DNA of 64,000 nt from positions 32,001 through 96,000 of the IMG/VR virus record IMGVR_UViG_3300033064_003894. The stretch is one strand, 5' to 3'. Under the pieces are notes generated by a model that saw only the letters and a list, made by a program, of their open reading frames with translations, searched no databases and was not told the DNA's origin. Below, piece after piece: positions 36,932-63,116 of the stretch. Both the position numbers and the translations under genes were made by a program. The stretch's first letter is position 1; every line of letters starts with the position of its first letter. This DNA comes from a virus.

Positions 36932-36977
36932 ACGAGATGTGGTAACATATTATACCTTTGATAGGGGTAGTTTTTAC

Positions 36978-37712
36978 ATGAGGAAGACAAAACTAAAAGG
37001 AGTGATAAGTGACATTCATGTTCCATTTCACGATGTAGCAGCTACTGCTCAAGCTATTGAGTATCTTAAAGATGCCGGAATTGATGAGCTAACGCTTCTT
37101 GGAGATATCTGCGATTTTATGGCAGTGAGCAGGTTTAGCCGTTCTCTTGAAAGAAGGGCTGGACTTAAATATGAATTAGACTCAACTATAGAGTTCTTGG
37201 ACGTTGTAAGGCAGACATTCAAAAAAATAAAAATAAATTATGTATGCGGAAACCACGAAGAGCGATGGGAAAAATATCTTATGGATAAGAGCCCAGAGCT
37301 CATAGGTTTAGAAGGAATGACAATACAAGAAAAGCTTAGGCTAAAGGACTTTAATATACAGTGGCATGAGACAAAATATATAGACAATGACATGGTATTT
37401 TATCATGGAGTCGGGCGCTCGTCAGGTGACGCAGGAGGTAGCGTAAAGCTTTGGCTTAACCACTTTATGACATCAGTAATAATTGGACACGTGCATAAGC
37501 AAGCAGTTCTGTACAAAAGAACTGGCACTGGAAGGGTTTTAGTAGGAATAGAAAACCCAACTCTTAGCCAGCTTGACCCAGAGTATGAGCCGACAGGAAC
37601 AAGCAACTGGCAGCAGGGAGGAACAGTATTATTAATGGATTACGCTAACAACGTAAATATACCCTATCCATTCCAAATATGTAATGGGAAACTGTACGCA
37701 TCAAAATTTTAA
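36978..37712 (+). CDS. Calcineurin-like metallophosphoesterase
   Basis: SDIH, GDICD, GNHE, HG and GHVH motifs. Confidence 0.85.
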   Translation: MRKTKLKGVISDIHVPFHDVAATAQAIEYLKDAGIDELTLLGDICDFMAVSRFSRSLERRAGLKYELDSTIEFLDVVRQTFKKIKINYVCGNHEERWEKYLMDKSPELIGLEGMTIQEKLRLKDFNIQWHETKYIDNDMVFYHGVGRSSGDAGGSVKLWLNHFMTSVIIGHVHKQAVLYKRTGTGRVLVGIENPTLSQLDPEYEPTGTSNWQQGGTVLLMDYANNVNIPYPFQICNGKLYASKF

Positions 37713-37714
37713 AA

Positions 37715-38490
37715 AAAAATATATTAAAGGTACGTATTACACATTTTTGAGATGTCACCAGGTCTAAGAGGTCCCACTCCACTTCAATTTCACCTCGCAG
37801 AGTTTCTACGATCGACGACGTCGACGTGTACATGCATTCGAAAATCGAAAATGTGGATCCGGATAAACTTGTGGGTTAACTCCACTGCTCGTGTAGAGCT
37901 CACGTGTACCGACTTTCTGTAAGTCGAAGTGAATTCCTATTCCTTACTTTTAAGTAAGTGATAGATGAAAAGGTATCCTTTTCAAAGAAATAATACGGGT
38001 TTTTATAAGTTACTTTTTTTTCTTTAATAATCTCAATTAATTAGATACTCTCTTTTGAACTAGCTATACTTTCCGACATTTACCGAAAACGCTAAACCTA
38101 CGCGCGTCGCCTGGCCCTGCAGGTTTCGAGGAGAGGACATTCTCTACCCACCCCATCTGGATTAATTTTTGATTAAAGTGAAAGTTACAAATGCCTGCCA
38201 GGCGTGGGTCGCGACGGCGGGTTTAAATTATCCGGGCCCGCCGGCGCCTTTGTAAATGAAAATTTACCTGTCTTCACTTTTAGTGAAGTGACCATTGTTA
38301 TGGAATCCACAACCGAAATTGAGCTAGCTATAACTTATGTTGCATACTCTTTTTTCAACCTGCATAAGTTTATTTTCACCTTTATGGCTAAAGGTTTGTA
38401 GGTTAACTTCTTAACCACACATCTAAGGTTCTTAAGGAATCCTTAAGATGATTGCAACATTGCTTTATACCCAGAATGAATTCTTTTTTT
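37715..38490. repeat. Non-coding palindrome/inverted-repeat array (natural polylinker-like)
   Basis: 12 different 6-bp palindromes in 37809-37936; several 8-bp palindromes (CCTGCAGG, ACGCGCGT, GTCGCGAC, CGGGCCCG, CGCCGGCG, AGCTAGCT); about 10 stem-loops. Confidence 0.85.
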
Positions 38491-38499
38491 AGTTTTATA

Positions 38500-38508
38500 T
38501 GATATAAT
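38500..38508 (+). promoter_or_regulatory. Extended -10 promoter of the RNAP gene (leaderless)
   Basis: TGATATAAT lies 6 nt before ATG 38515. Confidence 0.6.
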
Positions 38509-38514
38509 TAGATC

Positions 38515-59519: not shown

Positions 59520-59594
59520 TGGAGCCCCCTCCCAGAATCGAACTGAGCTATCTAGTTTACAAAACTAGGGCATCGCCAACAATGCTTAAGGGGC
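59520..59594 (-). tRNA. tRNA-Thr(UGU)
   Basis: Cloverleaf GCCCCTT..CTAGT-TTTGTAA-ACTAG..TTCGATT..CCA. Confidence 0.92.
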
Positions 59595-59595
59595 G

Positions 59596-59685
59596 TGGCG
59601 GAGGAGGAGGGAGTCGAACCCCCATTACGCTATGACACGTTTAGCCGATTTCAAGTCGGTGTGCTACGCCAGTTGCCGCTCCTCC
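59596..59685 (-). tRNA. tRNA-Ser(UGA)
   Basis: GGAGGAG acceptor, CCGA-CTTGAAA-TCGG, long variable arm, G73-CCA. Confidence 0.9.
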
Positions 59686-59691
59686 GAACCG

Positions 59692-60525
59692 TTATTGTAT
59701 CAAAGTTCCAGACTTTACAACAAAACTTTCTTTTTCTAAAGATATCTTTTTATATGGATCAAATCTTCGTCCCTCTCCAATTGCGTGTATACCTACTGGG
59801 TTATTCGTAAGTAATGTAGTCAGGTGTGCAGTGTCAACAACTTCATGACTGTGACCATATATGCAGACATCAAAATAATTTAACAGTTCTTCGTTTATGT
59901 CTGCACAGAAAAAAGAGTTGAATCTAGAGTCTGGACCAGTTTTATACATATCATGAGTGCATCTGTAAGATGGCAGGAAATGCGACAAAAGAACCTTATG
60001 TTTATAATTACAAACTTCGTGTTTTCTGAACTGATCAATAGAGTTGCAGGCAATTTGGTGAAGCTCTCTAATTGAAGAAGCTCTAAATCTTGCATTCATG
60101 TATTTTATCTGTCTAAAATCCTGAATTCTAGAAACAATATCATACTCTTGAACTGGGTCTTTAAGTCCAGACCATAAGGTGGTTCCAAAAACAACTATGT
60201 TTTTATCAATAGAGCACGAGCTATTATTTAAAATTTTAATCCTTCCTTTATGGTTGGAAGAATTGAATTTCTTAATAATATGGTTAGTAGGCTCTATTCC
60301 TCTTTTGTAGTATTCGTGGTTTCCTGGGACAAAGATAAGCTTCCTGTATTTGTATTTCTTCTGAATGCTCTCTATGTACGGTATGCTTACTTTTATATCA
60401 TTTGAGACGTCTCCGACTACAGCTAAAATGTCGGCAGATTTCTCGATAGAGAAGTCTCGCCGCTTTTTTCCTATAAACTCATTGTAGTCAACGTGAATAT
60501 CAGAGATGTATTGGATGTCAGTCAT
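59692..60525 (-). CDS. Metallophosphoesterase
   Basis: SDIH, GD, GNHE, GTTLWS, SHFLP, GHSH. Start MTDIQY at 60525. Confidence 0.88.
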   Translation of the reverse strand: MTDIQYISDIHVDYNEFIGKKRRDFSIEKSADILAVVGDVSNDIKVSIPYIESIQKKYKYRKLIFVPGNHEYYKRGIEPTNHIIKKFNSSNHKGRIKILNNSSCSIDKNIVVFGTTLWSGLKDPVQEYDIVSRIQDFRQIKYMNARFRASSIRELHQIACNSIDQFRKHEVCNYKHKVLLSHFLPSYRCTHDMYKTGPDSRFNSFFCADINEELLNYFDVCIYGHSHEVVDTAHLTTLLTNNPVGIHAIGEGRRFDPYKKISLEKESFVVKSGTLIQ

Positions 60526-60531
60526 GATTGA

Positions 60532-60608
60532 TGGTAGTGGAGGACGGAGTCGAACCGACACTGTCAGGCTCCTAAAGCCTGTTTCTCTTCCATTTGGAAT
60601 ACTCCACC
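60532..60608 (-). tRNA. tRNA-Leu(UAG), short variable loop
   Basis: CAGGC-TTTAGGA-GCCTG, ACAGT, GTCGG-TTCGACT, A73-CCA. Confidence 0.88.
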
Positions 60609-60652
60609 ATTGCCAGTTGATTAATTATACCAAATTATATACAATCGTTTAG

Positions 60653-61300
60653 ATGAAAGAGTCATTCATACAGATAGGGGCAGGAGCTGGAGATTTAGAC
60701 CCGCGTGCAAATTATAGAGACGGGTTCACTGAAACTGTGAAAGGTATTCCACGAGACAAAATCGATAAAATAATTTTAGTTGAACCAAATCCAATAAATA
60801 TTCCACTTCTGAAAGAGTGCTGGAAAGAGTATCCAGAGGCGGAAATTTATGAGATCGGGATAGTCCCAAAAGAATTTGGAGACAAAAACCTTATACTATA
60901 TTATTGCCCAAGCGACGCCCCTCATTATCAGGTTGCGTCTATAAAAAAGGAGCATGTTAAAAAGCATTATGGAGAGAATTGTACACTAAAGGAATTCACT
61001 ATAAAGACAAGGCACCTTGAAGAGTTCATTTCTGAAGCCGCCGGGTCCGCAAGTATTGGAATATTAGCTCTTGATATAGAAGGAATTGATGCTGAAGTTG
61101 TTCTAGAAATGAAATTTGGGTTCAATTTGAGATATCTATCATTTGAGGACACACACCTTGGAAATGACAAAGAGCGCGTAATTAAGCACTTATGTGATAG
61201 TGGTTTCAGGTATTCTGGCACTGGCCTTGACCACAGAGGGTTAGATTCTTTATATGTTAATGAAAAGTGTGATAAGAAAAATTTGCTTATAATACGATAA
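60653..61300 (+). CDS. FkbM-family methyltransferase
   Basis: FIQIGA, LVEPNP, LALDIEGIDAEV, SFE. Confidence 0.85.
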   Translation: MKESFIQIGAGAGDLDPRANYRDGFTETVKGIPRDKIDKIILVEPNPINIPLLKECWKEYPEAEIYEIGIVPKEFGDKNLILYYCPSDAPHYQVASIKKEHVKKHYGENCTLKEFTIKTRHLEEFISEAAGSASIGILALDIEGIDAEVVLEMKFGFNLRYLSFEDTHLGNDKERVIKHLCDSGFRYSGTGLDHRGLDSLYVNEKCDKKNLLIIR

Positions 61301-61339
61301 ATTTGTGGATTGTTAGTTATTAAATAGTAAACTGCTTCT

Positions 61340-61903
61340 ATGAGGTTCACAAACAACTGGTTTGACTGCAGCGCGAATAATTTTATTAAGTTCCTGTCGC
61401 CACATAAAGGTGAGCCTGGTATTAAATATTTAGAAATAGGGTCTTATGAGGGCAGGAGCGCTCTAAGCATTGCTGATCATATACTTACTGGATTAGGTAG
61501 TGAGATTCATTGCGTAGACACATTTGAAGGTTCAATCGAGCACACAGAAAAACAAAAGGATTCTCTATATGATAGGTTTATGAATAACCTAAAAGGCTCA
61601 GGCATTAAAAACGTTACTGTTCACAAGATGACTAGTAGAGAGTACTGGATGAACAATAATGAGATGTTCGATTTTATATATATAGATGGAGACCACAATT
61701 CGTGTACAGTAATAGAGGACGCAATGTGTGCATGGCAGAGAATAAAGCCAGGAGGCGTAATAGCGTTTCATGATTACGAAGGAGGCGGCGAGCCAATATG
61801 CACACCAAAGCCAGCGATTGATTTCTTTTTGCTGTCACATTATGGCAAGTATGATTTGCTGCTGAAGGGATACCAGGTTTGGGTAAGAAGGAAAATTCTA
61901 TAG
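61340..61903 (+). CDS. Class I SAM methyltransferase (Methyltransf_24-like)
   Basis: LEIGSYEGRS, VDTF, FDFIYIDGDH, KPGGVIAFHDY. Confidence 0.9.
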   Translation: MRFTNNWFDCSANNFIKFLSPHKGEPGIKYLEIGSYEGRSALSIADHILTGLGSEIHCVDTFEGSIEHTEKQKDSLYDRFMNNLKGSGIKNVTVHKMTSREYWMNNNEMFDFIYIDGDHNSCTVIEDAMCAWQRIKPGGVIAFHDYEGGGEPICTPKPAIDFFLLSHYGKYDLLLKGYQVWVRRKIL

Positions 61904-62314
61904 GTCTATAAAGACAACGTCTTTGCCTTGATTAAGGCTAATATTAAGAATCTTGTAAGCTCTATGTCGATTGCGTCTATTTATAAAGACAACAACAGAA
62001 AGGTTAAGTAAAATGGAAGAGAATGGCTCATAATGAGAAGGAGCTGTTGGTGGCCTTATCTTAAAAAGTGTGAAATGTTTGTTGCAGGAGTGTTTTACCA
62101 CAAAAAATCTTAAACTGTAGGCATTTAATAGTTCTTTATATGAACTGGCATAGACAAATATGTCGCACTGTGACATGAGGATTCTGTATGATAAAACCAT
62201 ATTATGGTTTCTTTCTGAACATGCTTCGCCAAGTCCTGTAATAAGACGAATTCCTTTATTACAGACGTTGAAATCATGGAGATATTTTAGTAGAGTGGCA
62301 GTCATTATTTTCAT
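61898..62314 (-). CDS. Hypothetical protein
   Basis: 138-aa ORF. Confidence 0.45.
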   Translation of the reverse strand: MKIMTATLLKYLHDFNVCNKGIRLITGLGEACSERNHNMVLSYRILMSQCDIFVYASSYKELLNAYSLRFFVVKHSCNKHFTLFKIRPPTAPSHYEPFSSILLNLSVVVFINRRNRHRAYKILNISLNQGKDVVFIDL

Positions 62315-62344
62315 TCGAAGTTACGAAAAATAATAGATATATTT

Positions 62345-62932
62345 TTATATAGGCAGACTATTTCTGTATACAGAGTCAGTCGTAAAGTGATCAATGTTTA
62401 CGCAAAGTCTGTTTCTGCACGTAAGGTATATAAATCTGTATTTCTTTCTATTGTCCCACCAGTTAAACTTTTCAGCAACAGCATGACGAACAGGTCCGTT
62501 TCTTATTGCTTTAGCTGTGCAAGATGGAGACCCATGTGTAAGGCTTCCAGTCCAAATAAGACATTTGCCATCTTTCTTTGTATGTCTTTTCATCATATCT
62601 TCGAACGACATAACTTTTAAATGTCGTCCGTCTATCTTTTCTATCTCAAGAGCCTTCTTCTTTTGATAATAAGCCCTATCATTTCTCTTTTTAGCATAGG
62701 ATTCTCTGCACTCAGGACAAAGCCTAAGATTTCTCCTATTAAATGATGCGCTCGTATACTTCTTTTTGCACCCGATTGTTGTACAGTCATGATATGAAAT
62801 AAGTTCAGAACCTTTTTCTTTGTTGTTTGTGCAAACAATACACAAGTCATCTTCTACAATATATCTAGTTAGTCGGCATCCTTCGCAATATCCAATTTTA
62901 AGATCTGGCTTGACTTCAAGTTCTTCGGTCAT
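62345..62932 (-). CDS. Zinc-finger + HNH (Zn-binding loop type) endonuclease-like protein
   Basis: CLIWTGS...TCRNRLCVNIDH; the catalytic His appears to be replaced. Confidence 0.65.
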   Translation of the reverse strand: MTEELEVKPDLKIGYCEGCRLTRYIVEDDLCIVCTNNKEKGSELISYHDCTTIGCKKKYTSASFNRRNLRLCPECRESYAKKRNDRAYYQKKKALEIEKIDGRHLKVMSFEDMMKRHTKKDGKCLIWTGSLTHGSPSCTAKAIRNGPVRHAVAEKFNWWDNRKKYRFIYLTCRNRLCVNIDHFTTDSVYRNSLPI

Positions 62933-62948
62933 GATTTCTTATTGTTGG

Positions 62949-63024
62949 TGGTATGTGGGCCGGGACTCGAACCCGGACTAAGAGATTCAAAATATCTGGT
63001 GCTGACCAATTACACTACTCACAT
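62949..63024 (-). tRNA. tRNA-Gln(UUG), atypical
   Basis: AGATA-TTTTGAA-TCTCT and CCGGG-TTCGAGT-CCCGG, with CCA; one mismatch each in the acceptor and anticodon stems. Confidence 0.75.
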
Positions 63025-63038
63025 TTAGTTTGGTAAGG

Positions 63039-63116
63039 TGGTAGGGGTGGTCGGATTCGAACCGACACTGTACGAATCTTAAGTTCGTTGCCTGCTGCCA
63101 ATTGGGCTACACCCCC
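63039..63116 (-). tRNA. tRNA-Leu(UAA), short variable loop
   Basis: ACGAA-CTTAAGA-TTCGT, ACAGT, GTCGG-TTCGAAT-CCGAC, A73-CCA. Confidence 0.9.

Follow-up and report, generated by a model that had tools for sequence, protein, structure and literature searches.

The non-coding gap between a metallophosphoesterase gene and an RNA polymerase (RNAP) gene in a viral genome from a freshwater metagenome carries many different exact palindromic hexamers, and this excess is confirmed as real, being explained neither by chance nor by base composition or artefact. The genome is the IMG/VR virus record IMGVR_UViG_3300033064_003894 (139,837 bp, linear, about 79% complete), of which bases 32001-96000, a stretch of 64,000 nucleotides called the window in the following, were analyzed. 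The gap under study comprises positions 37713-38514 of the window. We read it as a naturally occurring control region, non-coding and conserved in the lineage, that is built in two layers. The first layer is formed by several strand-specific two-hairpin modules, found in every relative read (RNAP N-terminal identity down to about 44%). The second, restricted to the window phage and its two closest relatives, is formed by GC- and CpG-rich, palindrome-packed segments ahead of modules 1 and 2. We demonstrate the statistics of the excess and the natural origin of the DNA, and further that the architecture is conserved and that the property persists although the sequences have diverged to saturation. 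As the best single reading of these features, to which we assign a probability of roughly 0.35, we propose a library of sites that would be maintained by selection and would engage restriction-modification (R-M) enzymes.

Palindrome Excess in the Gap

A first-pass annotation of the sequence had described the gap as gene-free and saturated with different palindromic sites, and all of the sites that it listed were located at the positions given there. No long open reading frame (ORF) is present under code 11, code 4 or with TAG read as Gln, and tblastx revealed no peptides common to this gap and the two palindromic gaps of relatives described below. Positions 37715-38490 contain 34 palindromic hexamers (29 distinct), compared to 12.8±3.4 with a maximum of 27 in 5000 dinucleotide-preserving shuffles. 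The annotation had further claimed 12 different hexamers where about 2 are expected; with the same shuffling the 133-bp core at 37804-37936 indeed holds 12 versus 2.3±1.4 (maximum 8). The excess is shared by the gap outside this core, where 20 palindromic hexamers stand against 9.9±3.0, a number reached in 13 of the 5000 shuffles. Second-order, strand-symmetrised Markov models gave an expectation of about 14 for the gap, and a separate count yielded 35 versus 13.9±3.5.

Compared to the rest of the genome, the gap is the maximum of all 139,837 bp at both counting sizes. In 128-bp windows it reaches 12 (genome mean 2.0, runner-up 9) and in 776-bp windows 36 (12.2±4.2, runner-up 27). The other intergenic gaps of at least 200 bp (n=16) contain 0.007-0.019 palindromes per base in comparison to 0.045 here. 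Among the 200-bp windows of 287 kb, made up of this genome and the related loci, the richest lies in this gap (15 palindromes), followed by two in the gap of the relative L014 (13 and 11). The description as a CpG-rich region in a CpG-poor genome was also borne out, with observed/expected ratios of 0.75 genome-wide, 1.15 in the gap and 1.80 at 37800-37940.

Natural Origin

The DNA of the stretch is present in four runs, all from one freshwater-metagenome study. A single 65.7-kb piece covers it entirely in the run that is its probable source, and short contigs of the three further runs cover the gap with 0 differences, bridging both junctions without joints. The gap of the relative L002 is likewise identical in two runs. 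Neither 72,556 plasmid records, used as a stand-in for UniVec, nor 50,697 phage records gave a blastn match. A cloning-vector polylinker or an assembly chimera is ruled out by the missing vector match, the identity across four runs and the divergent versions in two other natural phages.

Occurrence in Relatives

A search with the RNAP N-terminus gave five full-length relatives with 44-60% identity, all of which share the gene order and have a gap of 0.7-1.3 kb ahead of the RNAP gene; further relatives were obtained by scanning viral and metagenome contigs. The gap comparison covers loci at 57-60% and at ≤48% RNAP identity, two relatives at 51-53% being left out:

L002: RNAP identity 60%; 20 palindromic hexamers vs 10.4 and, in a separate count, 18 vs 10.8±3.1; maximum of its 21.5-kb locus
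L014 (NCBI metagenome contig): RNAP identity 57%; 32 palindromic hexamers vs 13.6±3.5; 10 in one 128-bp window
L003/4, L005, L006/7 and L010-13: RNAP identity ≤48%; 7-13 palindromic hexamers, as expected; no excess

The proposed check for palindrome-dense but sequence-divergent gaps at the metallophosphoesterase-RNAP site was therefore positive for L002 and L014, both of which come from other studies than the window phage, and negative for the relatives at ≤48% identity. Apart from the ATG-proximal promoter and the modules of hairpins, the DNA of the three palindromic gaps is unalignable. Since neutral DNA is saturated at about 60% protein identity, the palindrome property is not inherited sequence. 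Back-translated metallophosphoesterase patterns detected no further relatives in viral contigs, and a protein search returned just the three members already in hand. Short N-terminal RNAP fragments were not found, nor were look-alike stretches in the other genomes scanned.

Fine Structure of the Excess

For arms of 3 nt, enrichment was confined to spacer 0, with z=6.0, 5.0 and 2.2 in the three palindromic gaps, in comparison to z of about 0 to 2.7 at spacers 1 and 3-8. A peak at spacer 2 in L014 alone (z=3.2) is not independent of spacer 0, because 2+2 arms at spacer 2 sit within every 6-bp palindrome. When each dyad center was classed by its maximal palindrome and the three phages were pooled, enrichment was found solely at exactly 6 bp (64 vs 28.0) and 8 bp (19 vs 7.3), and not at 4 bp (106 vs 107.2) or 10 bp (2 vs 2.0). 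The resulting 64:19:2 split matches a 6-bp core with random flanks (63.8:15.9:5.3), so that the unit is a hexamer. Hexamers with one mismatch, including G-T wobble on either strand, occurred at expectation (pooled 327 vs about 326). Neutral decay of the approximately 47 excess palindromes would predict about +56 near-misses, whereas about +1 was seen, which leaves neither a decay halo nor tolerance of the RNA type.

Mirror and tandem trimer pairs were not enriched, and an apparent excess of the 'complement' trimer class proved to be merely overlap with palindromes. Trimer composition was rejected as a cause as the models fall short of the observed excess, and alternating purine-pyrimidine tracts cover just 6 of the 35 palindromes.

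The diversity and low redundancy emphasized in the first-pass annotation were sustained in part. With 29 of 35 hexamers distinct, the window exceeds the composition null (P=0.004); compared to uniform draws the same count gives P=0.25, so that the non-redundancy is weakly significant. In L014, 29 of 32 palindromic hexamers are distinct. Word variety lies above the composition prediction with P=0.004 (window) and 0.0095 and is marginal versus uniform draws with P=0.25 (window) and 0.04. Taken together, the three phages use 44 of the 64 possible palindromic hexamers, with the largest excess for GC-rich words (for example 14 vs 2.8 in the window). The words are also closely packed: 12 of 51 neighboring palindromes begin 5-6 nt apart versus 5.0±2.1 (P=0.003), and five triplets of the form X-rc(X)-X (rc, reverse complement) occur among them. 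The GC-rich bodies before modules 1 and 2 reach 0.04-0.085 palindromes per base, with 22-45% of their bases within palindromic hexamers. A small space presenting many different recognition-type sites, as the annotation had put it, is in accordance with this fine structure of exact, diverse and abutting 6-bp units.

Restriction-Site Avoidance in the Genome

Phage genomes usually avoid restriction-type palindromes. In this genome CTCGAG and CCCGGG are missing (0 vs 23 and 0 vs 7 expected), CCCGAG and CTCGGG together occur 7 times versus 26 expected, and all four CYCGRG words hence sum to 7 versus 56. CCGCGG (0 vs 5.6) and GCGCGC (1 vs 6.6) are depleted as well. CGATCG was counted once versus 13.5 expected, or twice in the genome if one in the gap is included. 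TCGA and CTAG stand at 0.58 and 0.67 of expectation over the whole genome. This pattern points to a host with AvaI-like and other Type II systems. The words of the array show a mean observed/expected ratio of 0.88 elsewhere in the genome, similar to the 0.90 for non-array words. As the purged words are mostly missing from the array, it is no bait for the enzymes of the current host. Judged from the word counts, this absence would fit an array of harmless words only and a decoy for unpurged sites alike, and it shows that the array is exposed to the same purging.

Layout of the Gap

The palindrome-packed bodies are punctuated by hairpins. The following features were assigned (strand in brackets; a dot denotes none):

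37713-37799 (.): AT-rich stretch past the stop codon, few palindromes
37800-37936 (.): body 1; 12 different exact 6-bp palindromes in about 130 bp, 45% of bases inside one, several abutting or overlapping by 1 base; CpG observed/expected 1.8
37937-37964 (+): module 1, hairpin A; 13-nt arms, 2-nt loop, 85% paired
37966-37984 (+): module 1, hairpin B; 8-bp stem, GG/CC closing, 3-nt loop, 530 nt before the RNAP ATG
37985-38094 (.): AT-rich segment, 26% GC; three weak sigma-70-like matches on the + strand; contains a 14-nt word
38095-38255 (.): body 2; 55% GC, 8 palindromic hexamers, five 8-bp palindromes included
38272-38288 (+): module 2, hairpin A; 7-bp stem, 3-nt T loop
38297-38313 (+): module 2, hairpin B; 6 of 7 pairs, GG-AAT-CC apex, 201 nt before the ATG
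38316-38400 (.): segment 3; AT-rich, no CpG, second copy of the 14-nt word, one more hairpin (38378-38395)
38401-38416 (+): module 3, hairpin A; 6-bp stem, 4-nt loop
38430-38448 (+): module 3, hairpin B; 8-bp stem, GG-AAT-CC apex, 66 nt before the ATG; the stem arms are two palindromic hexamers
38449-38514 (+): RNAP promoter region; T-run, then extended -10 (TG 38500-38501, hexamer 38503-38508) 6 nt before the ATG

The hairpin skeleton, which the first-pass annotation did not contain, is common to the phage family. Its module consists of hairpin A with a T-rich loop of 3-4 nt and, a few bases on, hairpin B, whose stem of 7-8 bp is free in sequence and closed by a G-C pair (26 of 31) below a 3-nt loop rich in A. 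Across 31 hairpins in 8 gaps the loop is AAA, AAT or AAC in 21, and 68 A were counted versus 12 T, always on the RNAP-sense strand. The rest of the genome contains 18 triloop hairpins of this type, without A/T bias and none with that apex. Distances from module to ATG are conserved, with 530/226/66 in the window, 494/217/62 in L002 and 513/219/96 in L014; the subclade of the window phage has its three modules near -500, -220 and -65 to -95 relative to the RNAP start. The free stem sequence, the conserved pairing and the strand-specific loops argue that the module works in single-stranded form, as RNA or extruded DNA.

In L014 the first two modules (1225-1267 and 1519-1561) form a 43-nt direct repeat with 98% identity, flanked by unrelated bodies, which suggests homogenisation or a strong constraint on the module. 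In L013, a TARA scaffold with 44% RNAP identity, units of 170-200 bp are repeated six to seven times in tandem ahead of the RNAP gene (1760-2900); each has a conserved 62-69-nt module around a GG-AAA-CC hairpin, and there is no palindrome excess. The 14-nt word of the window occurs after module 1 (38055-38068) and after module 2 (38319-38332) with 13 of 14 positions identical; ending in a -10-like TATA(C/A), it may represent a unit-internal promoter mark.

In all three phages the -10 element ends 6-7 nt before the RNAP ATG (window 38500-38517, L002 5990-6003, L014 1746-1783). It is of the extended TGn type in the window and L002, and in L014 a -35/-10 pair ends 7 nt before the ATG. As the -10 element abuts the ATG, a leaderless RNAP mRNA is implied, and the gap is then not its 5' untranslated region. 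From this spacing the RNAP mRNA is probably leaderless, and leaderless mRNAs in turn imply host ribosomes accepting them. Sigma-70 scans gave no consistent promoters inside the L014 and L002 arrays. An intrinsic terminator (GC-rich stem with T-run) was not found in the window gap, whereas two terminator-like hairpins, both on the + strand, close the bodies of L014.

An Rfam scan of the gap returned no family (best E=1.1, far below the gathering score), and a tRNA scan of the gap was negative. The sole Rfam match in the gaps of relatives is a tRNA-Cys(GCA) in L002 (5309-5380, -), corresponding to L021 3747-3817. It lies on the opposite strand in the first gap segment, directly past the metallophosphoesterase stop, and has no counterpart there in the window or L014. 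Whole gaps fold with z of -2.6 to -2.8 and single bodies with -1.2 to -2.9, and terminal hairpins make up most of the predicted helices that are notable. Stem-loops are plentiful in the gap (arms of 5 at loops of 3-7, z=3-4.5). Palindromes were located in stem-closed loops in 27% of cases versus 24% for other hexamers, and the idea of kissing loops was ruled out by this lack of loop preference together with the lack of wobble tolerance.

Flanking Genes and Further Genome Features

The two genes that border the gap are:

36939-37712 (+): left flank, calcineurin-like metallophosphoesterase gene (Pfam Metallophos_2, E=3e-8; phrog_221, E=6e-40), syntenic in all relatives
38515-45909 (+): right flank, single-chain beta-beta' multisubunit-type RNAP with intein, 2464 aa (Pfam RNA_pol_Rpb2_6, Rpb1_2/3/4/5, Intein_splicing)

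The intein-like insert of the RNAP (42640-44020) follows the catalytic NADFDGD motif and matches Pfam Intein_splicing. With Ser as first residue and Trp-Asp as last residues before Thr it is atypical. RNAPs of relatives contain additional inteins with LAGLIDADG or Hom_end domains, and the L002 RNAP has 3173 aa.

A reverse transcriptase (RT)-like ORF of 420 aa is located 8.6 kb downstream of the gap (47150-48412, -). Its similarity is weak, with an RVT_1 match at E=1.6e-4, below the cut-off, and weak matches to retron/DRT-type RTs in PADLOC; no template RNA adjoins it. Relatives have ORFs of like size and strand at the matching place, with a faint RVT_1 match in one and none recorded in the others. 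Five tRNA genes are clustered at 59520-63116 (-): Thr-TGT, Ser-TGA, Leu-TAG, Gln-TTG and Leu-TAA. The sole DNA methyltransferase signal in the genome is an N6_N4_Mtase match (37 bits) in a 485-aa frame outside the window (G000:C1:132272-132586, -), and genome searches found no methylases of the C5 and D12 classes.

Interpretation

Selection on duplex dyad sites is argued for by the exact 6-bp unit with zero spacer, the lack of wobble tolerance and of a decay halo, the diverse packing, the constant segment length and the persistence across divergent lineages. Such selection would act on the presence of many different 6-bp dyad-symmetric words, a class that would be read by homodimeric site-specific enzymes, namely Type II restriction and modification proteins. 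To our knowledge, no other proteins read, as a group, any exact 6-bp palindrome. A pressure towards diverse sites would be expected to show at 6 bp, because 800 bp contain all 4-bp sites by chance anyway and 8-bp sites would take up too much space. The array could then be a compact library of sites beside the early RNAP promoter, exposing the cut or methylation status of the genome to the R-M set of the cell, with a putative role as sensor or bait. The parts of this reading differ in strength. That selection rather than mutation keeps the palindromes appears somewhat probable to us; that the readers are enzymes of the R-M type is a tentative assignment. A selected cis-element acting as status sensor or bait by the early RNAP promoter, or else a multicopy decoy of unpurged sites produced via transcription and the RT-like protein, is rather unlikely, and any specific benefit taken singly is less likely again.

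Several observations weigh against the site library. Of the five purged words the array contains CGATCG and lacks the other four, and the rest of the genome has 10-90 copies of most array hexamers, with 54 of GAATTC as an example. The genome has just one DNA methyltransferase gene. Non-redundancy is not significant versus the uniform null in two of the three phages, and the excess in L002 is modest (P about 0.02). The relatives at ≤48% identity keep the gap and the hairpins without palindromes, and the palindromes are therefore dispensable for the core function of the region. Further, an array in single copy cannot titrate enzymes, which makes a decoy in cis implausible by stoichiometry, and a benefit of the array to the phage is not obvious.

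One competitor to selection is a local mutational process, in which breakage and repair (hairpin-end opening, fill-in end joining, template switching) would make perfect inverted duplications and host-site words would be purged, leaving an array without function. The diverse, abutting words and the five X-rc(X)-X triplets are what successive local events might leave, and the absence of purged words is in accordance with this scenario. The adjoining metallophosphoesterase has the fold of hairpin-cleaving nucleases as well, at the generic family level only. However, 4-bp palindromes, the commonest product of end processing, are not in excess and the predicted near-misses are lacking. The lengths of the inter-module segments agree within about 5-10% among the three diverged phages, which argues against an indel-prone hotspot, and the other non-coding gaps of the genome are unaffected. 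We also know of no process that specifically makes zero-spacer 6-bp duplications, and consider a mutational origin unlikely. Chance, base composition or an assembly or cloning artefact is highly improbable. A lone cluster of 12 in 128 bp could arise among about 250,000 scanned windows, but the look-elsewhere problem falls away with the second cluster of the gap and with the two independent relatives, sampled in other studies, which all repeat the excess. Dinucleotide and trinucleotide models leave the excess unexplained, and against an artefact stand the identical contigs without joints from four runs and the missing plasmid and phage database matches.

Two further explanations place the function elsewhere than in the reading of many sites. 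The region might be a structural cis-site, such as an injection pause or anchor similar to the T5 stop signal, a replication origin or a packaging site, whose dyads and hairpins would bind dimeric proteins of phage or host or favor unusual DNA structure. Among the non-coding regions near the early RNAP gene it is the largest, and it alternates between AT-rich (26% GC) and GC-rich blocks, combining many stem-loops with a layout conserved in the family. Yet the gap lacks DnaA boxes (TTWTNCACA; 8 in the window vs 7.1 expected), iterons beyond the one 14-nt pair and a turn of the cumulative GC skew, and its sequence is unconserved, unlike that of T5-type regions. A single protein cannot read 29 different hexamers, and 6-bp palindromes are too short for extrusion, so this role is doubtful. 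A function at the level of RNA or cDNA would treat the bodies as small RNAs or leaders ended by the hairpin modules, with self-complementary words pairing RNAs, or would have the RT-like protein make multicopy site-bearing DNA. It could account for the strand-specific module loops, which imply a single-stranded form, for the terminator-like hairpins that end the L014 bodies on the + strand and for GC-rich palindromes as the most enriched class; the RT-like ORF downstream, with similar ORFs in relatives, would supply the enzyme. Against it, G-U pairs are not tolerated, longer pairings bring no graded gain and palindromes are not favored in loops. The fold z-scores are modest, with standout helices that are mostly the terminal hairpins, Rfam gives no match and the RT-like gene is also present in relatives without palindromes. 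We regard this explanation as quite improbable.

Significance and Comparison with Known Systems

A 2.5- to 5-fold excess of hexamer palindromes across unalignable lineages points to a hitherto undescribed selective force or mutational mechanism acting on DNA symmetry. Should R-M enzymes be the readers, phages would be dealing with restriction systems in a manner not described before, and the array would be a multi-site DNA element that evolved naturally; a mutational cause would uncover a palindrome-generating process specific to the site. Its signature of exact 6-bp words with zero spacer and without a near-miss halo can easily be screened for in sequence collections. Additionally, the hairpin-punctuated architecture before the RNAP gene gives a new entry point to the control of early genes in phages with multisubunit-type RNAP, which have been little studied (PMC7481178).

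The gap involves the same class of words as the avoidance of restriction sites, which implies the same selective agent, but with opposite sign, being locally enriched. Similar to synthetic multiple cloning sites, its different 6-bp sites are chained with overlaps of 0-1 bp; in contrast to them, the gap has no database match and is contiguous with phage genes in four runs. The pac site of phage P1 is a cluster of one methylatable palindromic hexamer, whose methylation state gates cleavage. As a phage cis-element in which palindromic hexamers targeted by a methyltransferase lie close together, it sets a precedent for the methylation sensor that the first-pass annotation had considered among possible roles. 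However, pac relies on one hexamer and one methylase, whereas the gap contains 29 different hexamers, mostly single and in at most 2 copies each.

The injection stop signal region of T5 is comparable as a large non-coding region rich in inverted repeats and palindromes (bioRxiv 10.1101/866236; 10.64898/2026.04.02.716235). There, the same repeats occur in the same order across T5-like phages, together with paired DnaA boxes (bioRxiv 10.1101/866236; 10.64898/2026.04.02.716235). In comparison, the gap has neither sequence conservation nor DnaA boxes and is made of many different exact 6-bp words instead of long repeats. Hairpin B of the modules resembles the hairpin promoters of the N4 virion RNAP, which are likewise small and strand-specific, lie clustered before early genes and consist of a short stem with a purine-rich loop of 3 nt (PMC4496689, PMC13492108). 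The module stems differ with 7-8 bp, and the likeness concerns the hairpins, with a putative promoter role, and not the palindromes. The single-subunit RNAP profile PF00940 has no match in this incomplete genome, nor in the control genomes. Phages with a multisubunit-type RNAP are known from metagenomes, and the paper describing them is silent on the region before the RNAP gene (PMC7481178). In accordance with the annotation's statement that no element of this kind had been described, the literature on natural polylinkers and on restriction-site enrichment or decoys in phages yielded nothing relevant. The closest known analogues share only parts of the feature.

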